Below are positions 1 through 21,557 of a stretch of DNA of 64,000 nt, piece by piece. This DNA is from Yuukianura sp. NJ FZ-2021 (taxonomy: Eukaryota): positions 62,001 through 126,000 of the forward strand of contig CM102286.1 of NCBI GenBank assembly GCA_046563655.1. Direction: 5' to 3'. Every line of letters begins with the position of its first letter. The first letter of the stretch is position 1. Position numbers and translations under genes: made by a program. The notes beneath the pieces were generated by a model. The model saw only the letters and a list, made by a program, of their open reading frames with translations, was not told where the DNA came from and ran no database searches.

Positions 1-1111
1 AGAGACCCTGGATTCATGACGGGGTGGAAGGGACTCATCCAGATCGAAGCCAAGGACTCCACTGCTGCCATTTTGGTCGTCTTCCTCCTCTTCCTCATCC
101 CCAGGGATCTCGACGTTCTCTTCGGAGGTTCATTCTCAAAATTACACTTTGGAAAAAGGATTCTGACTAAAAACTTTCTTACTCAAAATAAACTTGTGTT
201 CATTTTAGAAATGCCACCAAAAAACCCGGGTGCTTTGTTGGACTGGAAGCATGTCCAGAAGAACTTACCGTGGAGTGCCGTTTTATTGCTTGGTAGGAAC
301 ATCAAAAAAAGTGTATTTCCTCGAATATAAGACGCGTCTTATCTCCGAAATTTCGACAAAAATTTTGAAAAAGAAATTCACTTTCAAAATAGGAACCCTG
401 ACGGAAAAAGAATGTTTTTAACTTTAAACTTTAGGCTTTCGTCCATTATTAGAGTATTTTTGAGAATTTCTGGGTGCGTCTTATACGCAAATGCGTCTTA
501 TAGGCGAGGAAATGGAATAGTTTACATATTTTTCAGTTTTGTTTTTAATTTATTTTGTGATTTAGGTGGTGGGTTTGCGTTGTCGGATGCTGCCGAGGCG
601 TCTGGTTTGTCTGACTGGATTGGAGAGCAGTTGAATGTGCTGCAGCCTCTGCCGCCCTGGTGCATTCTGCTAGTCGTCATGGTCGTCACCACCATCATCA
701 CAGAAGTCACTTCCAACGTCGCCACGGCCAACATCCTCGTCCCCATCCTCATCAGCCTCGTAAGATCAAATACTGCGCACTACTTTCACTTCTAAATCCA
801 AGTTTTCATTTAATTTGTGGTTGAACTAGTCGAGGAAATTAAACTTGCACCCACTCTACCTGTCCATTGCGTGCACCGTCACTTGTTCCTACGCCTTCAT
901 GTTCCCTGTCGCCAGTCCACCCAACGCCATCGTCTTCTCAGCCGGTGACCTCACGATCATGGACATGGTCAAGACTGGAGCATTTCTCAAAGTGCTCTGC
1001 ATGGCAGTCTTCTTCATCCTCAACATCACGTATGGAAATGCTGTCTTCAATTACGACAACTACGTCTACCCAAACACAACCACAACTACACCACCACCCA
1101 TCTTAGCCTAA
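1..1111 (+). CDS. SLC13/Indy-family sodium:dicarboxylate/citrate cotransporter, 3' part (gene starts upstream of the window)
   Basis: Spliced exons (~1-127, ~210-291, ~565-759, ~829-1111) encode LLDWKHVQKNLPWSAVLLLGGGFAL, TEVTSNVATANILVP and SYAFMFPVASPPNAIVFS, which are SLC13 signature segments. Stop TAA at 1109-1111. Confidence 0.9.
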
Positions 1112-2296: not shown

Positions 2297-4123
2297 ATGG
2301 GGTAAGCAGTCTCTTGTTCTTACTTTACTCTTTTGGTCCAGGGGATCCATTGACAGGACTTTGTAGTACCATCTTGTACACCTATTACTGTACTTGTGGT
2401 TAATCAATTAGTAATTGGGTGTGTTTTGAACATTTATCTGTTCCAGAGAGTCACCGATCTTCACTTGTAAGGCTCATGTGTTCCATATCGATCCGGGAAC
2501 GAAGAGATCATGGCTCCCTGCCTCATCAGTGGCTGTCCCAGTCTCCTTCTTCTACGACTCTTCCAGAGCACTCTACAGAATCATCTCAGTCGAAGGCACA
2601 AAGGTAACCTTATCCAAACCACTTTCATCCATTAAGCCCCGCAATGAACATCAATTCAATATGATAAGCCACAACTCCGCTTTTTATATAAAGTAAGGAA
2701 CGTTTTATTGACGTTTTCCTGTCCATAGGCGGTGATCAACTCCACAGTGACCCCTTCCATGACGTTTACGAAGACGAGTCAGAAGTTTGGTCAGTGGTCT
2801 GACGTGAGGGCGAATACTGTGTATGGACTTGGGTTTCCTTCGGAAGCAGAACTCAACAAGTTCATAGACCAATTTGCCACGGTGAAGGAAGCCACCAAAG
2901 GAAAAGGTGGGACTACAAATGGAAGTGGATCCAGTGGCAGTTCAGCCAACGTTCCCATCCCACCTCCTGAGTCTGGTTCTTACGGCAGAGAAGATGTCAA
3001 CTCCAACGAGGCCAATGCCAATTCAGTGGCTAAAGTGAACTCTTCTGGAAGTAGCCATGGGAGGAGTCAGTCCCTCTCAGCTGTCTCTCCTGGCCCTCCG
3101 ACCACGGAGAGTCCGAAGCATCTCCAGAAACAAAATTCGGATCTGTTCAAAGGACCCCTCAAATACGACACATCAGAATCAGGACTCAAATACGAAAACG
3201 AACGACTTCGACTCGCTCTCTCACAAAGGTACGCTTTACTATGTTTATCTAATAGCTAAAACGGAATCCTAACTTTTTCCTTTTCGTTTTGTTATGCCAA
3301 TGGTTTAGTTGTCTAACTTTTGGTTGGTAATAGGTAGATGCTCAAGTTAGTTTGTAGTTTAGTTACTAAAAGTTAAATTATTAATTCATCGCACAAAACT
3401 AATAAGTGGAAGAAAATGTGTTAATATTTTTGGTTTTGTATTTGTTTTGTGTAGCTGTGCCAATGCTAAGAAATGGGAAGTGGAGCTGGCGACGTTGACG
3501 ACCAATAACAACCGACTAACTGCAGCTCTGACAGAAAGCAAAGCGAATGTGGATCAATGGCAGCGGCAGCTCAGGTAAGGTTCTAAGTTTGACATGAATC
3601 TATCCATTGGAACTGGAAGTTTGAATGTTTTGGTTTCATCTTCATGGTTTCAGTGCCTACAAGGAAGAGAATCAGCGACTGAAGCAGAGGGCGTTGGAGG
3701 CTGAGGCTGCGAGTGGGAGTGCAGATGCTGCACAGGAATTACGCAAAGAGTTGGCCCTTATGCGGGATAAGGTTGATGCAGTTCAGGGACTGCTCAAGAA
3801 CAAAGAAGAAGAACTTCGAGTGCTCAGAGAAAGAACTCCAGAATCTCAGGAACCCCCCAAGGACACTCCATTCGTAAGGATCCACATTCAATTTAAACCA
3901 TAACATAATAAGTTTATTTTCCTGTGGTTTAAAGTCTTGTGCTTTGCAGGAAGTGGAGAGTGTGCGTGGAGCTTTGGCTTCTGCAGAGGCGCAACTGGAG
4001 GCTGCCTTGGGAGCTCAAGAGTCCCAACGCCGTGTTCTGGAAGCACTCAACTCTCAACTGGCAGACAAAATCCAGGAACTGCTCGCAATCCACAGAGAAG
4101 TGAACGTGGCTCTGCAGACATGA
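2297..4123 (+). CDS. homer: Homer scaffold protein (EVH1 domain plus coiled coil)
   Basis: First coding exon is ATGGG|gtaag at 2297-2301, then [23 protein letters not shown]...[24 protein letters not shown] (Homer EVH1). Coiled-coil exons include [13 protein letters not shown]. Ends LQT-TGA at 4121-4123. Confidence 0.95.
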
Positions 4124-5151
4124 ACGAGACTTATCTTCTACCCTGCATCATGGCATTTACTCTTCCCTCAAAAACCAGGTACGAACTGTCTTCACTTTTC
4201 TCCGCTTCCCTGGATTCAATCAACAGAATTCATGGCAACAACATGTCGCTTCCAGTCGTAAATGCCATGCTGCCGAAGGGCTGCTAGAAGTCGAAGGTTG
4301 TTTTGGGTTGTGTTGTACTTGGCCACTTGAAATCGGAACTCTTGGAGTGCCGAATGGTGGACCAGTACTTAGACTAAGTTCGTTTTAAGCCTTTTCAGAG
4401 TTTCATACTCATTCTCGATTTAGAATTGGGCAGTTGTACTGCCTACCTTAAATGACTAATTGCCAAATGTGAGATTTGGAATGGCTGTTAGCCATGACAT
4501 GTGACTGTTATGTTTACTCGTAACCTAGGTTACTTTAGTTGGTTTAGTCTTTTGTGAGTTGTCCACTGTTGAGGACAACGCATGCTTACTTGTCTATTCT
4601 ACAAAAGGATAGCCCAACGTTAGTCAACGGATATTCACTTTCCATTTCTAAAGTTGAAATTAAGGGACTTGATTGGAACTTCCGTTTGAAAAACTAGGTT
4701 CCGTTGGATTATTGACTAGATTAATACGAACAGTAAGTGATTGGTTGTTTAGTTTGTATTTAATCATCATGACGTTAGCCGAGTGACCTCCACTTCCAAA
4801 GTTACTCTCTTGTTGAAATTATGAATCTCAGGCAGCTTCACACGAGACTGCTTTAAGTTGTACGATTATTTATTAATTTATTGTGGCAAATAGGCTGCTC
4901 AACTGTCATTGTATTGTGCAATTGTTCTACTTTGTCCATTTAGTTAGCAGAGTAGCTTTAGATGTAAAATTAAGTTTGAGATTTGGACATTCCATTCCAC
5001 TTGTCATTCCTCCCAGTTCAAAGTAGCTTCCTGATCATACTCAGACATTGAAGTGTCAAAGGTACTTTTTATTTGTCTATTAAAGATAGACTTAGTTTGA
5101 CTAGTTTGAATGGTTGGGTGGGAAGTGGGCGTTGGTCGATTAAGGCTTGTG

Positions 5152-8100
5152 TTATGTTTTGGGGGCGGGTGGAAGTCCCATGTGGAGGGGTTTGGTGGGG
5201 GAGGGTGTAGGCACACTCTTGGAATGTGGCATGGCGGAGTCTGGGCGGAGGAGGTTGGAGGAAGTTCTGCCCAGCACTTTGCTCAGCACCTCCGGAAGTC
5301 CCTCCAGCGCCTCACTCAGTCCCGCCAACTTCTCCTCTATCGTGGACAGGCGATCCTCTAAGTGGTCCTGACGACCCGACAAGTCAGACACGATTTCATA
5401 CACTGTGTTCTGCGTCTGAAATCAAAGGACGTTATACTTGTAGCACAACTTGGTTTCAAATCCACATTTCTCACCGGTTCGGATTCTTTCAAGTCAGGAA
5501 AAAAACACGGAATCCGGATTTTTCGTTTCATTTTAGTTTCATTTTTCATTTTAGGGAATGGACCAATTGGAAAATTCAGGTGGAAAATCGAAAAATTGAG
5601 GATTTCATTAATTTCAGTTGGTCAGCATTTGCTGAACATAATCATCAAGTTTTCTTGGTTTTCGGAATTTAAAATCGACGTTGATGATCATTTCGAAAAA
5701 CGAAACAATTTTCGTATTTGCGGTTTGGTATAAATGCGGTTTGGATCAAAATCCGTGGAAATTCAAAATCCGGATTTGTGAAAAACGGTGAGAATTTCCA
5801 CCGTTGTTGGTCAGAATGTGTTTGTTTGTGGAGTTACCTTGGCCATGTCAGTGATTGTGTTGGCGTTGTCCATTAGTTTCCGTTGGTCCATCTTCACCTT
5901 GCGTAGTCTGCGGAGAAAGAGGCTTTAGAGAAAGTTTTGTAAGTGGGTGTGGTTCTTACGCGTAGATTGCGAGGAGGAACTTTCTTTGGTGAGCTCTGAC
6001 GCGAGAGGGGTTGACTCGTTTGACGAGTTTCGTGTGTTTGTAGATGAGCCACGTCTCACGCAGGACGTTGGCCGCAGAGTTCTTCAGCTACAGCACAAAA
6101 CAAACATTATTTCTGACTTTACTTTAGTCCCGGGTTGCCCAAGTCCTCTTTCCCCGAGAAAGTTATGGGAAAGAGTAGTTGGGAAGCCGGGTGAAGGGGT
6201 ATTTGGGCTCTGACTCTTCTCTGGAGTTGCTTTTGCATGATGAGGATGTGGACCCGTTTCTCTGCCTCGTGCATTGTGAGCTTCTGAATGATGACTGCCA
6301 CCAGGACGGCCATGGTGGCATTGCCCTGTAACAACGCATACCTCTAACCTTGTACTGCAGAGAGCATGCAGAGCACTCTTTGGGGGTTAGTGTGTGAGAA
6401 GAGTCAGAGGAGGGGGGTTACCCTCTTGGTCAGCTGTGTGTCCATCATGAAGTTGTGGACGTGTTTCTCTGCCCGACTCAGCTCCATCTTGCGGGAGACG
6501 ACTGCGACGAGTAGAGCTGTGCACCCAGCGCCCTGTGGATGAGGGGGTTAAGAGTTAGTGGGGGGAAGGGAGTGAGAGCAACTAAGAGTTACCATGAGCC
6601 CAGTGAGAGTGGCGATGCCCCTGCCGCAGCAGGTGGACGGAACAACGTCTCCATACCCAACTGACAGGAACTGAAACGAGGTCAAAGGTCACTCCAATCA
6701 CAAACCACCGCAAAACACATCAGGAACAAGGCATCAGCAATCCAAACACAGCAGCTATGAAATCACGGCAGCCGAAACCGTAGAGCGGCTCAAAACGGCT
6801 CCAACGCTTTCACCGGAAGTGGATTTTTGAATCCTGCTTTCACAGGTAAATTGTAAATTGAAATCCAAAAGGCATCTAACGCACCAGCTTCAGTACATTG
6901 TACCTGTGAAAGCACGATTTAAAAATCAACTTCCGGTGAAAGCATTGCAGCTTTTTTATGGCTCCCATAAGCAGGAAAGACTCAAGCAGTAATTATAAGC
7001 AGTGCAATTATACCAGCAATGATTGCTCCCAAATTAAATTAGGTTGACGTTAATTTTAACTTGACAGAAAATTTCTTAACATAATTTACTATATTTCCAA
7101 GAAAAAAGAAAGTCAACAAAATTTCATTTAACTTCAGAGCAATTTGTGATCTTGTGATGTAATTGCGCTGCCTTAATTAAGTTTCATGTCTTTCCTGTTT
7201 ATATTTTTTCGGCTGCTGTGTTTTCATTACTGATGTGTTTGAATTGCTTATGTTTTTGTTTTGTGTTGCGTTTTGTGGTGATGTTTTTGTGATGTAATGG
7301 GGTGGTTGTGGAAGATGACTTTTGTGTGTACTTACCGTGACAGCAGTGACCCAGAGCCAGTCGACCTGGACATGCTCAGTGTCGTGGTACCTGGAGGAGA
7401 GTGCAATGAATACCATGGCAACCCTCTGACCTTTGACCTCTCCTCTAGTCAGACAGCAGTGTCAGAGCCCCACCCTCCTAATTTACTCCTAATTTACTCC
7501 CGATTCAGAGGAAATGCTTTCTCTTGGGGAAATTGACCTTTCCCCGAAATCCTTGTGTTTAAGCGGGTTTCAGTTGGGTAGGAGTGGTTGTTGTCTCACT
7601 CCCTGGATACTTACCATCATTCCGCAAGTGATGCAGATCCCTCTGCCGCAGTACGTATTGGGCACGATGTCTCCGTAACCTAGGACAGTCTCAGTCATTC
7701 ACTAATAATCTCTCTTTAGTGTCCCACCTACCTATGCACAGAAACGTCACTGCCACCAAGTACAGGCTACAAACACAAACAAACTTTTAGAATCCCTCCC
7801 AAGGACAAGTTAGGGCATTTCCACACCAGCCCAAATGAGAGTCCACTTTCTCTTTTCTAGGAATCTCTTTCGTGGATGCTTGAGTGAAATGAAAGTGGAA
7901 TTTGTAGATGAAAGTTTAGATGTTTGAATTTCAATTTGGGTGTGGTTTTGGCTTGAGTGTGGAAATGCTGAAGTGAAGTAGGGCGTACCTATTGAGGAGG
8001 TTGGCGTGGTTCTCCTCGTCGTGATGCCTTTAAAGAGAAGTAGAGTAACTATTGGGCACAGATGCACACCGATAACCAGAGTAAGCGTACGACACCGACA

Positions 8101-11100
8101 GCAGGAGAGGTGACTTTGTCACTCAAGGGCTCTGACCCTCTGCTCACATGAGGAGGGGGCAAGCAGGGAAAGCACACAGCAGTCCACACAACTCACCTCT
8201 CGCACTGACGCAGAGTCCACGACGCAATCATCCACAGAGACACCATGAACACGAGCAGAACAGTCCCCGGACAGATCGTCATCAACGTCTTCAGCACAAA
8301 CCTAAAACACAATTTACTTTCACTTTCACTTTACACAAAAATACTTTGTCCACCTCCCAATTTACAAAAACAACATTAGACTCCCCTTTTGAATTTTTAA
8401 AGGGACTTTAATGGGGCCTCACTTTTCCACATTCCTTTCCAAACGGGATGCGTGCATTATTGAGTAGGTTCTTTGTGTTTTCCTTATTACCCCGCCCTTA
8501 TTTCCTCCTCTTTGAAAGAGAAAGTGGATGTTTATTTTCCAATTTGTGATGGGAGAGTTGGAATTTGTTGTGTTTGTTCACTTTGTGATTTGGTGAATGG
8601 GTGAAAGGGACTTTACCTTGTGTTGAAGTTGATTCTGTTGAGTGCTCCGATGGACCTGGAGGATGCATCCGTGAAGAGCTTGGAGTGGAGGAGCATCACT
8701 CTGCAGATGAGGTAGAGGCGGAGGAACATGGGCAGACTCAGGGCCACGTCGATCGGTACTTCCTGCAACACAAGAAAGTAGACAGGGTACTTGAACTTAA
8801 GGGATGGGTACTTACCTTGGTGATGGGTTGGGGGTGGAGAGTGTTGGCTAGTTTCGTGGTCCATGTGAAGTAGTAGCGACCAGGGATGGGGTGGACTGCG
8901 CAGATGACGAGTTCCAGGGCAATCTGGGACATGCGCTGCCATGTCATGGCAATCCGCCAGTCGTCTGCACAGTTGTCGATCATAAACAGCTACAAACAAA
9001 GTGGGCATTTGAATAGTGTTGTAAATGCTTCAGGGTCGGGAGGTTTTTTCGTTTCAGTGAAAGAAACTGAAATAAATGAAAAAAACTGAAAAATTGAAAA
9101 AAAAACTGAAAGAAAGTGAAAATTTCGTCTATGTTTTTTTCATTTCACTGAAACAAATTGAAAGAAAGTGAAAGAAATTGAAACATTTCGTTGAAATATT
9201 TCAGCTTATCAGTGAAAGAAATTAAAGAAGCTGAAAAGGTTTGTTCCGTTTCATGTATGTTTCAGTTAATTTCAGTTTTTTTCACTTTTCACTGAAAAGT
9301 GAAATATTTCACTTCTAACACTGCATTTGAATGACCTTGACATTTGGAGGGGGGGGGGGCGATGAGCACAGGAGGGGGGCACTTAACCAGTAGAGAGTAA
9401 CAACGGAATTCCATTGACTCAGTCACTCGCAACAACTTTTTCCATGGCCTCCCACTAATCGACAATTATTGTCGATTTCAGCTGAGAACGGGGGGTAGCG
9501 ATTCGCTAGGGTAATTGTTGATTTCAGCTGAGATCGGGGGTGGCGATTCGCTAGGGTAATTGTCGATTTCAGCTGAGATCGGGGGTGGCGATTCGCTAGG
9601 GTAATTGTCGATTTCAGCTGAGATCGGGGGTGGCGATTCGCTAGGGTAATTGTCGATTTCAGTTGAGATCGGGGGTGGCGATTCGCTAGGGTAATTGTCG
9701 ATTTCAGCTGAGATCGGGGGTGGCGATTCGCTAGGGTAATTGTCGATTTCAGCTGAGATCGGGGGTGGCGATTCACTAGGGTAATTGTCGATTTCAGTTG
9801 AGATCGGGGGTGGCGATTCGCCAGGGTAATTGTCGATTTCAGCTGAGATCGGGGGTGGCGATTCGCTAGGGTAATTGTCGATTTCAGCTGAGATCGGGGG
9901 TGGCGATTCGCTAGGGTAATTGTCGATTTCAGCTGAGATCGGGGGTGGCGATTCGCCAGGGTAATTGTCGATTTCAGTTGAGATCGGGGGTGGCGATTCG
10001 CCAGGGTAATTGTCGATTTCAGTTGAGATCGGGGGTGGCGATTCGCCAGGGTAATTGTCGATTTCAGCTGAGATCGGGGGTGGCGATTCGCTAGGGTAAT
10101 TGTCGATTTCAGCTGAGATCGGGGGTGGCGATTCGCTAGGGTAATTATTCTTGTGCACACTTTTGGCAACTGGTGACGTTTTATTTTGGACGTCCCAAGG
10201 CCAAAATTCCTCTTTCACAGTGTCTCCACTTGGCAATTATCAAGGCTATTCATCGCCGCATGCAAAAAGCTATGCTACTGACACTGGCATGACACTAGTT
10301 AGTGACATCTATTGAAAATTAGCAATAATTGACACATTTTATGAGTTAGGGTTAGGAATGTTGGAGTTTGAGTAGTGAAAGTAGTGTGGCTAACCTGGAC
10401 TTCGAGGGCGTGATATGCAACGATCAGTCCCACCAAAATCAACGTGGACACTGAAATGAGTGTCTTGATCGCTGTAGAGTAGAAAGACGTCTAAGGAATC
10501 ACAGAATCAAACAAACTCGTTTTAGTTTTTAAAGGAACATGCAATTTTGATGTTGTTTAGGCGGAATGAATCCGAACCCGGTGTAAAACTTTGTAAGACA
10601 AGGAAAAGGTTAGTGAATTGATTGTGTTTGACTAGAATGAATTTCTCCCCTTGACCTCTCATGGCCATCTTGTCTGAATTATGGAGTGACAACTCAAGGT
10701 CACGCATGGACTCTTCATTTGGTGGAGTGAAGGACAATGGTGGCTCAATTGCCCCACTTTCATCAACTCCTTCTCTCAATAATTCACACCTCCAACTCTC
10801 TCCTGCACAAACTGCCCATTCACAATATTTCTCCACTCCAATCCCCGTTTTCAATTACTCTTCTCTACTTTCATTCGTGAGAATGAGTCAGTGGAGAGTG
10901 AGTTATTTGGAGAAAGTGGATGTTTCATCATTCCATCGTCCTCTATTGATTGACTGTCACATCAACTCCACCAATCCCATCGCTTTCTCCAGTCTAAATG
11001 TCACCCAATTCTCCACTAACCCAACTTCCAACTACTAAAATTGGACATTTCCAATTTCTCAACTCCCCTTTGTCCACTTCATTCAATTCACCGATGTTGA

Positions 11101-14100
11101 AACGTTTTAGTCAGACTGTTCCTGGTCAAAGTTGTGCTGGGCTAATAGTTTGTTAGTTCTGGAAGTATGTTTGACATGTTGAAAATGAGAGTATTGTTCC
11201 TTACTTTTTCGTAGACATGTGCTGAGGAGAGTTCGTTTTCGAGAACCATGAGTCCGATTCCGATCATTCCCATGACGAGAGCATAGTCTGAAATCCGTTT
11301 CCTCTTTTCGAAGAGTGCTTTTCTCCTGCCGAGTCGGTAGCCGACGTTGGGTTTGTGTTTGCCCCCCAGTCCCATGCCGAGACCAAGGTGGGCACTTGAC
11401 TTTCTCTTCTCATCGTACTTGGGGTACTCGGAAGTGACCCCCACCAAGGCAGCATCCTCCTCCCCCCTTCCCCGCTCCCCTCCCATGAGACTCCCTGTGC
11501 TCCCCGGAATAGACAGCGTCGACAGAGGGGGCACTGCGTTCCTCAGCTGAAAAGACACAGTGACCCCATGACCCTCTGCTCACATGCGCATGCACAGGCA
11601 CTAAACACTACACTAAAGTCAGCTAAGCAGTTGCAGTGTGACTCGCACTGTGCACTATCCTTCCTCTCTCGTCTTTCACAAGGGAGTGCACAAAATAGCT
11701 AAACTTCGCATGTGCAATCCCTTCTCAAACACAAGAGAAAGGTGGTGGGGGAAAGTGGGCTCTTCAACTCTTCTACCGTAAACATTCTCTAAAGGCCTAA
11801 CTTTTCCTAGTCCTTCGGGATTACCCTAACTCATTTCTTTAGTTCATTTATGATTAGGTTTGTTTTCCTTTTTACTCCACTCATCAACTTTCCAAAACTT
11901 TCTCTTTTTACTAAACTTTGCCTAAACTTTTGCAATGGAAACAATTCCATTCCTGGTGAGGCCTTTCAATTTCCTTACTAAATTGAATTTAAAAGTTCTA
12001 GGTTGAAAGACACTTGGAGTTTTAGTTTAAAATTGGGATTGACTGGGTTTCCTAAAGGAATGCTTGGAGTTATTTTGTGAAAGCAGAAGGATAGAGTGTA
12101 GAGTGCGGATGGTTGTAAAGCGGGTGTTATTCGTGTTTTTACGGTGGTTGAACAAAAGTCGAACCGTTTTGAGGTGGTGGGGGTTCGGACAGAGTTTGTT
12201 GGCGTCGTCTCCGAGTGCGGGTTCTGTCGTGTAGGCTCTGCGGAATCTCGCTCTCCTCACCCCAGCAGATCCTCCTCCAGCCAGAGTTAGCGGGTTAAGA
12301 AGCAAAGTGTGCTAGAAGATGGAAACAAAACACTTCCGACTTAACACAAGCCCCACAGAGGGCACACTCATACTTTCACTCTACAAACTCTGTCACTTCC
12401 CATTCAAAGGTGTTGGAGTGACTCTTAAAAAGTAGTAGCTCTGAATAGTATTTTTTGATGGAGGACATTTGGAGGTAGAGTGGAAAGTGGAACACGGTTT
12501 TTCCTTTGGTGATGATGGAGTGGTTTGACGAAGCGTCAAACGAAGGCCTACAACATTTTAGGATTTCGGAAGGTCGGAAAGAAGGTTTAGGCGTGGATCA
12601 GGGAATAGTAGCTCCAACAGAAGGAGAGTAGCAAGAAACAAAGTGTTTCCGTTTTTGTGAGAAAGTGGAGAAAGTAATGGTTTGGGGTGTAATTGGATTG
12701 TGGAGGGATTAAACATTTAAATGGAGCTCCAGCATCCACACATGCCTCGCAGCCCAATTAATCAACACGAAACAAGAACTAGACACAGGGGACTCCCCTT
12801 TCTTTCCTCTGATTCTCACTTTTGGGGAAAGTAGTCTCAGTTACCTGTTTGAACTGTCGAATGGCCCCATTGATGCGCAGAGAGTCTGCTGCAATTCCTG
12901 CAATCCCTTCCCCAGGCTCCTTCAACTGTCGCAGGGAACTCGAACTAGAAACAGCATAAGAATCCATAAATTAAGAATGAGGCTGCAGGGCGAGGCAGTT
13001 TCCAAATTTAACAAACTGCCCACCATTTCTTAGTCTTTCCACTTTCTCTTTCTCAGGAATCGACTCCCGCAGAGTGAGTCGCATTAAAAATTCAAACTCA
13101 AATTCATTCCTTCAAACAGAGCTAGGCCCCTCTACAAACTTTTCCGTCTCCCTTTTCATTTTTTACGACGCAACGTTTGAAGTTTTCAAATTTGTTTTTT
13201 GTTCCAAACCTTTTCAAACTTATTGTTACACTATATGAAACGTAAGAATGAGCCAAAAATAATTTTTTTTGAAACTTTGAAACTCGACCCAGAATTTCAG
13301 GGATTCAGAAAACTTTTTTTCTGTCAAACTTTTGGATTTTTTTTTACTGTTCGCCTCTTTTAAGTCATTTCTAATCGTTTTCTGCCAAAAAATTTGTGAT
13401 CGAAGAAGTCCCTCTTTCGATTGTTTTTCAAACGTGGCATTTTGGAACTTGGCTTGTGTTTCTGTGACAAACGTGAGAATCGGCGTAAGTTTGGCCAAAT
13501 GAAATGGGATTTTGAGTAGTATTTTGGACGTTCCTTAATTGTTTTTGAGTGGAGAAAGAGAAGTGTTTTTTTTATTGATTTGTGGGTTACCTGTGCGTTT
13601 GGCAGTAGAGACAGGTCGTCTCTGGCTGCGAGTGTTGTCTCCTGATGGCTACATCTCTGTTGGTGACAGGGATAGCCTGAGGGTGGGTGTCTGTGACATG
13701 GACAGAACGGATGCTGTCCTTGGAAGCATGGCGAGACAGAGAATCGCACTGGGCCGCAGTTTCGCAGCGAGAGCAGTGGTGTCTTCTGGCCCCACCCGAG
13801 GGGAGGAGGTATCTGTGACGACGACAGGAGGAGCAGAGCCCTTCGTGTCCACTCGGCATGCTGGAGGGCCCTTGACCTGGTCCCAAGGGATGCGTGTCAG
13901 TGCGCATGCGGGAGTGGATCTCCAGTTCCGGCACTGATCGGCTGGAGTCGGAGCTCCTCGGGGGCACGACAACCACCGTCTCCTGCTCCTCATCAGTCGA
14001 TATCATGATGGGCGGCTCATCAACGGAGATGGAGGCGCCCTAAGGGAACCACAAGTCAACAAATTAATGAGCCACTCCTAAGTCAACAAGGAAAGCACGC

Positions 14101-15057: not shown

Positions 15058-17746
15058 GGCTCCAAATCAAACATCACTTCTAAACAACAAAATATCACTT
15101 ACAAACAGCATGAACAAACTTTCTCTCTTTCCTCAACTGAGAAATGTTTAGGTGTTTAGCCTGGAGTGAGATAAAAGTTAGTAATGGAATGGAGATGAGG
15201 ATTTGAAGAGTAGGCCAAATCCCTTGGTGCGAGGATTATGGCCACTTATGGGCACAACGATCTGGAAATGCTTTTACGCTCCTGCAGGGCACTCAGAGGC
15301 CGTTAAACGGAATGTTTCTTTCACATATTCACCTTAGCACGTTCCAAATGCCACTGCCTTTCTTAGACAAATGACTTTTGGAGAACATTTGGAAAGAAAC
15401 TCCTGTCGGAAGTTGAGAAAGTGACATAATTTAGGCACGTCGGGTGGGGACCCTGTGCCTCTCAAATATTGAGAAACTATTGATTTCCTGTCTAATTACA
15501 ACCCACTCCCACCATGAATAACTAAGCAACTGACGAAATGACAACAAAGCAATCACAACTCCCAACTCACAAACAACACTTTCTCTCTCTTCTCAAATGA
15601 AATTGGAGTTGTTTAATTAGTTTTGAGGTAATTCCTCACTTTCCACCTCAGTTCTGTCGCAGTGTGGCGGATTATGTTGCTCCTGTGGTTCCTTCCTCTG
15701 TAACTCTAATTAGTGAGATGGGGTTTAGAGAAAGTTTTTTGATGGTTGATGAAGAGGGGATTTAGTTAAGCCAAAGACAGAATCAATAGATCCACCATTC
15801 CATAAGCAAACAAACTCAAGGCTTCCCACGCACTGGACGAGGGAAACGTGCCTTAGCAACTCCAATCAAATTCTGTTTCCAATTTACAGCTTTAGAAAGG
15901 AGAGGAAATTGCACAACAGGAATGGACGTCTTTTGTTTGGAAATGGGACACCCATTTGTTGTCCCTTCCTAGGAAATTGTAGCCTTTTGCAGGACGTGTG
16001 TCTTATTGTTACTTTTGAATTGGAAGAGTGTGAATGTTCCTTGTGATTTATTTGTGCTTTCACTCACTCGTGAGTGGTGTGATGCCTCTAATCCAGTTGT
16101 CTCTCCACCTCTCCACTTCCAATTCAATTTGTGAGGTTAGCCACTCCAAAGTCCCTCATCCTTTCTATCTCTTTTGTCTTTTCCGGGTGATGACGGAAAC
16201 AAGATTAGAGTGGACAGGAGGAGATCCTTCTAATCCCTCCATTCGAGACACAAAAGTGAAAGTTCAACTCAGTTTCCTCCCATATTTGTGAGTGTGCACT
16301 TTGGGAGTTGGAAAAATGGGATTTGACATGGGTGGGGTGTGGAATGGGGAATGAGATGAAAAGTAAAAGTGGAACTGCAACTTTCCACTTTCTCCTGAAG
16401 GAACAAAGGAGAGGCCCCCCTCTGGCCCCTCCAGCTCAATACTGTTCCTCACTCTATTGACCTTTCACTCAAATGTCAACCACCTTCCTTTCCCTTCCCA
16501 GCCACAACGTACAGAGTGATGTGTGCATGGATCCAAGAGTGTCAACGGGAGTGTTGCAGTTGGAGTATTGATTGTGGGAGTTGCTTAATGAATCTCATTG
16601 GCTCTTATGCCTAATCAATGTATTGGAAAATGGGTGCTTGGTGGAGTGATTATTGGGGTTGCAACTTATTCCACACGCAATACTTTCCCTCATGGTGAAA
16701 CTTCACCTAACACATAAGGGAGAGGTCAACTCCATGTCCACACAAACCGCTTTACAAGGACAAAAGTACTTGGGAGTTCTCAATGCTTTCTCTTCACATA
16801 ACTATCCAATTCCATTGATTTCCACTACAAAAGAAGGAACTTGGATCAAATAATGACATGGTTACAACTCCATTGTGCACAAATGAGTTAGGGAGAGTCA
16901 CGCAGTTCTTTCTTTCCCACCGGAAAGACGCCACTCTCTAAAAGACTCTTTGATGACATATGTAATGGTGAATTCTATCTTTTTCTATTTCGTTGGTGGG
17001 CATGAGTGAAGGTGGTGGAGAGTGAACTGATGCGTTAAATTGGATTGATATGAACTGTGCGTTGGTTGGAGTGAGAGAAAAGCTTACCTGTCCAGATCCC
17101 CCACAATGTTCCCGCGGTTGGAGAGAGTGGTTGAGGTGTTGCGAGGAGGAAAGTCGGCGCTCAACTGGGGAAAGCAGGCACAAACTTTTCTCTTTTTGTG
17201 TCTTTGAGGAGAAGGGGGAAGCGTCTACAAATTGTTTCAAGAATTCAATGTTCCAAATCCCAATTTCTCTTTCTTTGTACTCAAAGGGAGAACTGTAGTT
17301 TTGACTCAAATTCAATCATAACTTACTTTCACCCGTGGATCTTCCTTCCACTTTTCATGTTCTTATTTCATATTTCATTTACTTCCAGTTTAGGATTTCA
17401 TTTGGATTTCTAGAGAGTCAAACACATTTCGTATTGATGGATTTTGAAAATGGAAAGTGTTAGTTTCCAGAATGATTTGTGCGGTGACCTTGGTGATTTT
17501 GTGAATGTGGGTTCGTAGTTGGAACATGAGAGAATTGAGAAGAAGCCGCCAAATAAGAAGACAATGGGCAGTTGTTTGGTGGCACTGCCACTTCCCATTG
17601 TTCAACTCAAGGTTAGAAGCGATTGTTGCATTGATCGGCTTGTTCGGAAAGAGCGTGCCCTTGGATGTTTGTGATTGGCGGTGGAGAGTTGTCGTAGGGA
17701 AGTGGTGAGGAGTTGAGACTTCAGTTGTGGTTGGATTGGTGTCAAG

Positions 17747-19280: not shown

Positions 19281-19877
19281 CACTTGACCTTTGACCCCTC
19301 CGGGGATTCCTATTTTCTGATGTGATTCTTCCAGAAAAAAAAGACAATTTTGTAAAATAGATCGTGTGTGATGAGAATGGATGGTTTTTATAGGAGTAAT
19401 TAAGGTGGAAGTTGGTTTTGTGGCTAATGAGGAGGCAGGCATTGTTGCCTGACTCAATTAAATCTCCACTGCTCCCAACAATGTGTCGCATTGTTCCAGC
19501 ACAACTAGAATCCCAATTAAGGTCGCACTTGGTGGGACAACAATCGGAGACAAACTATGCGACATTAATGAGGTTCATTCGTTTCAAAAGGCGACATTGC
19601 CTACTTCAACTCATTAAACGATACCTATTCCGCTTGCTCTGCTCAATGTGCCTCATTGTGCGGGAAACAAAGGACTCAATTCGTCTTTAAACCGCTGAAA
19701 AGTGGCCATTGTAGTAACAAATATTGTGCATTCCAATCAAATATTCCAACTCCATTCGGAACTTTAAATTGAGCCACATCTTTTGCAATGTATTTTATTA
19801 TTGGGGCAATGTGAGACGTGTTAGTAGTTACAAATAGAGTTTCCAAGTGGGCATTCATCCAGGCAGGAAGAGTACAA

Positions 19878-20952: not shown

Positions 20953-21014
20953 TGTCCTCCTATTCCACTTGTGTCACTCACAATTTCTTCGTCTTTTCCA
21001 TCTAACGTTTAACA

Positions 21015-21557
21015 ATGGCTTTTCAAAATGGAGTAGTTTTGTGTCTTTTTGTTGTGGCTGTCTCCTCAGCCCCACTTGGGCAGAGTGGAAGTGGGGCCTC
21101 TGTCCCACCGGCAGAAACTGGGAAGCCCCATCCCACGGCGGAGCAGGAGGCTTTGATCAAAGAAAGCTTCCAGGAATTGGATGTTAATGGAGACAACAAG
21201 GTCAGTTTGGAGGAGATTCTGCCGATTGCGGTGAAAGTATCGGAGACAGGGCTGGACAAGACTTTGAGGAAGCTGGATAGCAATGGAGATGGGGTTGTTT
21301 CTGCCAGGGAGTTCTTCATTCCGTCCAACACCATCAACCAGCAGCTCTTCTTCAACGTTGACTTGAACAGAGATGGGCAGTTGGAGCTGGACTCTGAGAT
21401 TAAGCAGTTCCTCTCCTCTCAGTTCTCCAAAATCTTCACAGATTCTCTGGACGAGAACAGTGATGGAGGGCTGAGTGTCCAGGAATACGAGGACTTTTAC
21501 ATGAGTCAAATTGCACTGGAAAGTGCAGCTCAGCAAAAAGAAGCTCCACAGCAGTAA
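21015..21557 (+). CDS. Secreted multi-EF-hand calcium-binding protein, 180 aa, single exon
   Basis: Signal peptide followed by four EF loops: DVNGDNKVSLEE, DSNGDGVVSARE, DLNRDGQLELDSE, DENSDGGLSVQE. AATAAA follows the stop. Confidence 0.85.
   Translation: MAFQNGVVLCLFVVAVSSAPLGQSGSGASVPPAETGKPHPTAEQEALIKESFQELDVNGDNKVSLEEILPIAVKVSETGLDKTLRKLDSNGDGVVSAREFFIPSNTINQQLFFNVDLNRDGQLELDSEIKQFLSSQFSKIFTDSLDENSDGGLSVQEYEDFYMSQIALESAAQQKEAPQQ

Follow-up and report, generated by a model that had tools for sequence, protein, structure and literature searches.

INTRODUCTION

Choices between groups of exons, as distinct from single exons, have been described in vertebrate genes. As far as the accessible parts of the reports go, two sets of exon 3 plus exon 4 are mutually exclusive as sets in human CUX1 (Hatje et al. 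2017, PMC5740500), and the exon pairs 7.1-8.1 and 7.2-8.2 of vertebrate GNAO1 are duplicated two-exon units that are likewise mutually exclusive (PMC5896119). For arthropods, the competition between docking-site and selector RNAs in clusters of mutually exclusive exons is reviewed in PMC6071210, again judged from the accessible portion. An alternative exon of SK is listed in Table S4 of a 2022 study (PMC9741552), the available part of which does not state which exon is meant. In the accessible parts of the open-access literature (PMC4555475 and PMC6454897 included) we found no exon-level account of SK pore alternatives or of introns inside them. Here we analyze a predicted SK (KCNN-type) calcium-activated potassium-channel gene in 64,000 nucleotides from Yuukianura sp. 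NJ FZ-2021 (assembly GCA_046563655.1, contig CM102286.1, positions 62,001 to 126,000 of the forward strand; this whole stretch is called the window). The gene encodes its pore twice, in an upstream cassette A of three exons and a downstream cassette B of two.

With alternative pore exons, a single SK gene can produce channels that differ in permeation and gating, and where introns lie inside mutually exclusive exons, splicing must treat two or three exons as one unit. We consider it likely that cassettes A and B are an ancient pair of exclusive single exons, with A upstream of B, which were split independently by introns in springtails, so that a messenger RNA takes either A1-A2-A3 or B1-B2.

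RESULTS

The SK gene and its two pore cassettes

The gene occupies the minus strand from ~15040 down to ~5160 of the window. Its exons match the 517-residue protein P0012 with 90-100% identity along residues 1-511 (tblastn), P0012 carries the Pfam domains SK_channel (PF03530), Ion_trans_2 (PF07885) and CaMBD (PF02888), and the filter motif GYGD is present in cassettes A and B alike; on these sequence grounds we assign the gene to the SK (KCNN) family. The source of P0012 is the cDNA-like contig L001 (1949 nt) from a close relative; its 517 codons run in a single frame, and its nucleotides are 80-90% identical to the exons of the window. After P0012, the next match in a whole-protein search was Folsomia at 76%, with no other close relative, and the best named full-length relatives are the springtails Folsomia candida, Allacma fusca and Orchesella cincta, so that by similarity the source is most likely a collembolan or a near hexapod relative. 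The parts of the gene that concern the pore are as follows.

8197-8301, minus strand: S5 exon, constitutive; ends ...RQCE plus AG, the first 2 nt of an Arg codon; 100% identity with P0012 residues 234-269
7989-8027, minus strand: cassette A exon 1 (A1), 39 nt; turret; ends in phase 2; AG/GT sites
7732-7766, minus strand: cassette A exon 2 (A2), 35 nt; pore helix; ends in phase 1
7615-7679, minus strand: cassette A exon 3 (A3), 65 nt; GYGD filter and the beginning of S6 (...GICITCGMM); ends in phase 0; tblastn match
7336-7390, minus strand: cassette B exon 1 (B1), 55 nt; ends in phase 0; 17 of 19 residues identical to P0012
6671-7335, minus strand: B1-B2 intron, 665 nt; near end-to-end foldback
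6593-6670, minus strand: cassette B exon 2 (B2), 78 nt; FLSVGYGD...GIATLTGLM; ends in phase 0; 86% nucleotide identity to L001
6422-6532, minus strand: S6 exon a (S6a), 111 nt; canonical, ...TKR
6215-6325, minus strand: S6 exon b (S6b), 111 nt; divergent, ...QRR

An earlier note on this DNA, made from its letters alone, had proposed two alternative multi-exon pore units followed by a choice between two S6 exons. The minus-strand sequence returned the same coordinates, lengths and spliced translations for the five cassette exons, and both S6 exons were found. All 10 splice sites of the cassette exons are AG/GT. The S5 donor must join A1 or B1, and the spliced frames agree with the note that each cassette enters in phase 2, one base completing the Arg codon of S5, and leaves in phase 0. 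Spliced cassette A measures 139 nt (39+35+65), which matches orthologous A cassettes, and B measures 133 nt (55+78). The internal introns differ in position and phase between the two, again as the note had it: A is interrupted at N|S after N12 (phase 2) and in the first G of GYG (phase 1), and B at T|F (phase 0).

A and B are identical at 24 of 44 aligned residues, and no third pore-like copy was found within the window. With orthologues of each elsewhere, this likeness goes beyond chance. The two are adjacent homologues of similar length and equal outer phases, and taking both or neither breaks the frame, as expected of a mutually exclusive cluster. Before the filter, A has Cys and B has Ser, and the entry to S6 reads GIC..CGMM in A and GIA..TGLM in B; channels with different pore properties would therefore be expected. 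S6b has orthologues in Folsomia, Allacma, Ischnura, shrimps and a second springtail-like contig, L072.

Reading frame and the combinations of cassette exons

The five cassette exons can be combined in 32 ways, 24 of them out of frame, in keeping with the note's statement that most mixtures, or both cassettes together, shift the frame. Including A and B together (272 nt), or neither, loses the reading frame, and one complete pore results only from A1-A2-A3 and from B1-B2. Besides these, six subsets make up the eight that stay in frame: B1; A1+B1; A2+A3; A1+B1+B2; A2+A3+B2; and A1-3+B2. Addition of A1 to B, or of B2 to A, is tolerated, as the lengths of A1 (39 nt) and B2 (78 nt) are divisible by three. 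Splitting of the cassettes has thus weakened the frame rule. The choice between S6a and S6b is not policed by frame either, since each S6 exon is a multiple of three.

A probably ancient A/B pair

The pore region was read in all proteins retrieved, including those found with the Orchesella A cassette as the A-type query. We called a cassette A-type by the signature FLC-x-GYGD plus GI(C/T)..CG and B-type by FLS-x-G(Y/F)GD plus GIAV.TG. The 228 stored pore-containing proteins comprise 166 with B only, 41 with A only and 21 with both in tandem. The two-cassette proteins, which include models from Lepidoptera, Timema (three copies), Diaphorina, Gryllus, Frankliniella and Homarus and several Folsomia isoforms, are evident mis-models, their copies joined by read-through or frame-shifted filler. 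Single-cassette isoforms of both types occur in Folsomia candida (X17 has A only, X13 B only), in Ischnura (X2 and X5 have A; X1, X3, X4 and X6 have B) and in Cloeon (P0139 has A, P0202 B).

Tandem A/B cassettes were seen in insects, in the Homarus (lobster) model, in copepod-like and mayfly-like contigs and in springtails. A lies upstream of B in all five loci that hold both, namely the window, mayfly-like L020, copepod-like L039 and L047, and springtail-like L072. In a maximum-likelihood tree of 40 cassette sequences, all 15 A-type rows, including that of the window, are set apart by one branch (97/97 support), which we take as supportive, not independent, evidence for an A group. Only B-like sequences represent chelicerates, myriapods, tardigrades, molluscs and annelids in the sample, so that a pancrustacean origin of the duplication is probable, on sparse sampling. 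From this distribution the pair appears to be old and to predate the split of copepods, decapods and hexapods. Alternative pore exons, which the note gives for insect SK, occur as A and B types in tandem across Pancrustacea, as one ancient pair of homologous alternatives.

Some features of the B filter and of S6 vary among these proteins. In winged insects the B filter is GFGD (for example P0097, P0122 and P0175) and A keeps GYGD; springtails, dragonfly, mayfly and crustaceans have GYGD in A- and B-type cassettes alike. B with GFG is followed by S6a in 89 stored proteins. Three lepidopteran models (P0127, P0129 and P0133) contain two consecutive canonical-type S6 exons, which suggests a lineage-specific S6 duplication distinct from the S6a/S6b pair.

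Evidence on the use of each cassette

L001 joins S5-B1-B2-S6a exactly at the predicted junctions, which confirms, indirectly, use of B in the Yuukianura lineage. Between the window and L001, the B cassette has a dN of 0.057 and a dS of 0.85. Cassette A of the window is identical to that of L072 at 34 of 45 residues, with synonymous sites saturated, and shows 82% identity to the A cassette of a cricket. In the cassette tree the end branch of the window's A is 0.21 and the stem of the pair formed by the window's B and L001 is 0.86; the turret and pore helix of this pair have been rewritten, and its branch is long. From the filter to the S6 entry, the 16 residues of the window's A are those of the A cassettes of Folsomia, Orchesella, Ischnura, Cloeon and Gryllus, bar the final position, where only springtail and copepod rows have C; in L072 A one residue is different. 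By these measures A is better conserved than B in the window, and both copies are under constraint. We infer use of A in Yuukianura sp. from this conservation; a search for sequencing runs with positions 5100-14100 of the window listed none of RNA. Loss of conservation in one cassette, which the note had named as part of an outcome that would tell against its proposal, was not seen: A is conserved, its frame is open and its splice sites are intact. A combined with S6b occurs in none of the 41 A-only proteins and B combined with S6b in only 5 proteins of the sample, counts too small to speak to coupling between the two choices.

Introns inside the cassettes

We called a cassette uninterrupted when it could be read from the xHD turret to the cassette end and then into GT or a fusion to S6. 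Of 31 cassette copies in genomic metagenome loci, 26 are one uninterrupted exon, 3 are cut by a contig end and 2 are interrupted, in mite-like L068 and in A of L072. Twelve contig-derived open reading frames (ORFs) in the protein database also read as single exons. Most lineages thus have one exon of ~139 nt per cassette, which is probably the ancestral state, and the note was right to call units split by their own introns unusual.

Intron positions were compared with those of relatives, as the note had proposed, and all of them differ between the window, L072 and Folsomia. Both cassettes of L072 are split at sites other than the window's. Its A consists of 104+32 nt, interrupted in phase 1 within the Gly codon that follows NTY(C/A), and its B of 77+59 nt, interrupted in the same phase within the codon for the second Gly of GYG. 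In Folsomia model X8, ...SFWLI is followed by ~27 retained codons and a B that is out of frame; this points to an intron in the Folsomia B cassette at that place. The six split positions, five read directly and that of Folsomia deduced from the model, all differ, from species to species and from A to B, and parsimony therefore favors lineage-specific intron gains within springtails. In a related genomic contig, L076, the 1.1 kb that follow the S5 exon contain no cassette, and it gave no intron positions. In L072 the S5 exon (9954-10240) also contains an additional intron of ~160 nt, which the window lacks; this fits a general burst of intron insertion in the SK gene.

A foldback intron within cassette B

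The B1-B2 intron has a minimum free energy (MFE) of -255.4 kcal/mol, compared with -149.0 +/- 6.4 for 20 shuffles (z = -16.5). Its pairing begins at nt 12 and stops 12 nt short of the acceptor, leaving ~11-12 unpaired nt at each splice site, and it contains inverted repeats of 46 and 64 nt (I1 and I2). There is no second copy of this foldback within the window. Folds of the A1-A2, A2-A3, A3-B1, B2-S6a and S6a-S6b introns and of both L072 cassette introns were unremarkable, the sole exception being a small hairpin at the B2-S6a donor. An inverted-repeat intron that reaches nearly to both splice sites has the form expected of a transposon-derived, introner-like intron, and the foldback may be a mobile element with inverted repeats by which the intron was created or filled. 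The same structure could hold the B1 donor beside the B2 acceptor, so that the two halves of the cassette would act as one exon. These two readings of the foldback are mutually compatible.

Candidate long-range RNA stems

The note had also suggested a search for docking and selector RNA pairings around the cassettes. Whole-intron comparison with RNAduplex returned long, diffuse duplexes with z -2.9 at best and was replaced by an ungapped-helix test, in which 28 intron pairs of the window were compared with 200 shuffles and 21 intron pairs were treated likewise in L072. The arms of the stems discussed below are as follows.

7427-7440, minus strand: stem 1 arm; 37-50 nt upstream of the B1 acceptor; perfect 14-bp complement of 6678-6691
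6678-6691, minus strand: stem 1, other arm; lies 8-21 nt 5' of the B2 acceptor
8127-8136, minus strand: copy of the 10-mer GGGCTCTGAC (plus-strand spelling); S5-A1 intron; RNA-complementary to 7461-7470
7461-7470, minus strand: opposite-sense copy of GGGCTCTGAC; A3-B1 intron
6208-6221, minus strand: arm at the S6b 5' splice site; 14-nt perfect complement to 6396-6409
6396-6409, minus strand: S6b stem partner arm; S6a-S6b intron; -25.8 kcal/mol

Three intron pairs of the window formed helices that were reached by at most 1 of 200 shuffles. Stem 1, which in full pairs 7427-7445 with 6673-6691 around a 14-bp perfect core (-29.8 kcal/mol), was reached by 1 of 200, a statistic that overstates its specificity because its 14-nt arm, GAGGTCAAAGGTCA, is common in the window (14 matches with at most 2 mismatches, against 0.8 expected). 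A third helix, of 23 nt, lies between the A1-A2 and B1-B2 introns. The 10-mer GGGCTCTGAC has four exact copies in the 64 kb, three of them within 6205-8136 and in both senses. Pairing of 8127-8136 with 7461-7470 (-28.6 kcal/mol) would loop out the whole of cassette A, and this helix, reached by 38 of 200 shuffles, is not significant on its own. In L072 at least 10 of 200 shuffles reached the helix of each of the 21 intron pairs, and no counterpart of the A-looping or B-masking stems was demonstrated.

The stem at the S6b donor was reached by 0 of 200 and 0 of 1,000 shuffles in the window, and six other donors of the window, which served as a control, had no significant complementarity. A pre-specified test of the S6b donor in L072 found a stem of different sequence there (17269-17289 with 17622-17642), reached by 29 of 1,000 shuffles. 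It is plausible that the S6b stem is a regulatory structure, and it may be conserved and mask S6b. The cassette stems are only leads. The search that the note suggested thus yielded candidate complementary motifs, the S6b stem among them; the A-looping helix was not above shuffles and had no significant L072 counterpart.

A direct-repeat motif, (A/G)GGTCAAAGGTCA, occurs 14 times in the window with at most 2 mismatches (0.8 expected), for example at 19285, 24422, 28397, 53248 and 55487. We take it to resemble a DR1 pair of nuclear-receptor half-sites; it could instead be part of a dispersed repeat.

Other features of the window

Elsewhere in the SK gene and around it we recorded the following.

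12192-12311, minus strand: exon-like frame, ...RRAYTTEP; corresponds to a stretch that some Folsomia isoforms have (X13) and others lack (X17); probably an alternative cassette exon for the N-terminal part of this SK gene
9468-10146: 15.1 tandem copies of a 45-nt unit with 97% matches; in the SK intron between exons 10392-10490 and 8843-8989; its long open frames on both strands are not exons
1-1111, plus strand: 3' exons of a Na/sulfate-dicarboxylate symporter-type transporter (Na_sulph_symp)
2729-4123, plus strand: WH1/EVH1-domain gene, presumably Homer-like, followed by coiled-coil-like exons
21006-21557, plus strand: EF-hand protein

DISCUSSION

The reading that we favor, and hold to be likely, is that of an old exclusive pair secondarily cut up by introns. 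Springtail introns would have been inserted independently into both cassette copies, giving three exons for A and two for B in Yuukianura, and a productive mRNA would take A1-A2-A3 or B1-B2. Products with both cassettes or neither would meet a premature stop and presumably be removed. If the internal cassette introns are spliced constitutively, the regulated decision would remain the ancestral one, that is, the joining of the S5 donor to the A or the B acceptor and the skipping of B by the A3 donor. Within B, the 665-nt foldback has a structure that would bring the B1 and B2 splice sites together.

Several observations weigh against this reading. No A-type transcript of any close relative was found, and for the organism that yielded P0012 a metagenome scan with this protein gave only the B-type L001. 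All eight cDNA-like metagenome contigs that hold a pore (L001-L007 and L009) carry B, and the evidence for A-only products consists of gene models. Where other A cassettes have the pore-helix Trp, the A of the window has Tyr. The subset A1-3+B2 passes the frame check, and frame alone does not enforce exclusivity. The preference for intron gain over loss is parsimony on a limited contig sample. The cassette tree is built on 45 columns with A and B labels that are partly defined by sequence, so its clean grouping is partly circular.

A further-reaching proposal is that repeated intron insertion made multi-exon exclusive units that are held together by RNA structure, much as docking and selector elements work, here acting on groups of exons. 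The 14-bp stem between the regions upstream of the B1 and B2 acceptors would hide B2 unless B1 is chosen, GGGCUCUGAC-type pairing across A would loop out its three exons at once, and the stem at the S6b 5' splice site, formed by other sequence in the second springtail, would set the choice between S6a and S6b. At least one intron may derive from the foldback element that would now zip B1 to B2. We are doubtful of this proposal and regard it as tentative.

It is unlikely that cassette A is a silent relic in this species and that only B, with S6a or S6b, is spliced in. Such a view would account for the presence of B in the only transcript-like sequence of the close relative and in all eight pore-holding cDNA-like contigs, and for the Trp-to-Tyr change in the pore helix. 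A relic would not be expected to keep all six of its splice sites canonical and its frame open, nor to stand nearer to the ancestral sequence than B does, as both the cricket comparison and the branch lengths place it. The 34 of 45 residues held in common with L072 A, despite saturated synonymous sites, point the same way, and the differences from other springtail A cassettes are mostly conservative (I/V, M/L, W/Y, A/T).

We give somewhat less credence still to the idea that the units are not strictly exclusive and that in-frame hybrids are regulated isoforms, for example S5-A1-B1-B2-S6, in which the turret would gain 13 residues. A1+B1+B2, A2+A3 and A1-3+B2 do keep the frame, and splitting created exons able to act as independent cassette exons. 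None of these hybrids is among the retrieved proteins, however; every two-cassette protein carries filler typical of mis-prediction, and a pore with two filters or without its turret would not be expected to fold into a functional form. The least probable alternative, that the intra-cassette introns go back to the ancestor and that insects, copepods and others have lost them, can draw on the frequency of intron loss in arthropod genes, as argued for Mhc in the accessible part of PMC2257972, and on the interrupted cassette of mite-like L068, but it would need six old introns, at positions that all differ among the window, L072 and Folsomia with none common to A and B, and complementary losses in every lineage, and it sits poorly with the 26 of 31 uninterrupted genomic copies from diverse taxa.

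With the independently split exclusive pair as the preferred reading, springtail SK loci become a natural test case both for multi-exon coordination in splicing and for intron gain, the foldback being a candidate transposon-born intron. Detectors that look for mutually exclusive exons one exon at a time, and automated gene models, will mishandle such loci; many retrieved models fuse both cassettes.

Among described systems, the docking-site and selector arrangements of arthropods, as the accessible part of the review presents them, resemble this locus in having intronic complementary motifs, here in the SK pore region, placed so as to loop out a whole alternative; they differ in that no conserved docking site emerged for the window, its A-looping helix standing at 38 of 200 shuffles with none significant in L072. 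The GNAO1 pairs, in what is accessible of that report, are gene-final exons, so selection of the 3' end can decide between them, and the copies have a common intron position and were therefore duplicated as a pair. CUX1 resembles the SK locus in that the choice is internal and exclusive and falls between multi-exon units. To judge from the accessible text, its units, in another gene, are interleaved and have a common exon structure, unlike the SK units described here, with their independently acquired intron positions.

The tandem SK pore exons of insects and crustaceans agree with the springtail locus in gene family, in the region covered (turret to early S6), in the order A then B and in outer phases, and the A cassette of the window falls into one group with those of insects, copepods and lobster. 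In these counterparts one exon makes up each alternative, as read in L020, L039, L047 and other contigs, whereas in the window A has three exons and B two, and the insect B filter is GFG whereas both springtail cassettes have GYG. What was already known, through annotation, is the alternative pore pair; what is new is its division into differently split multi-exon units in springtails, together with the foldback intron.

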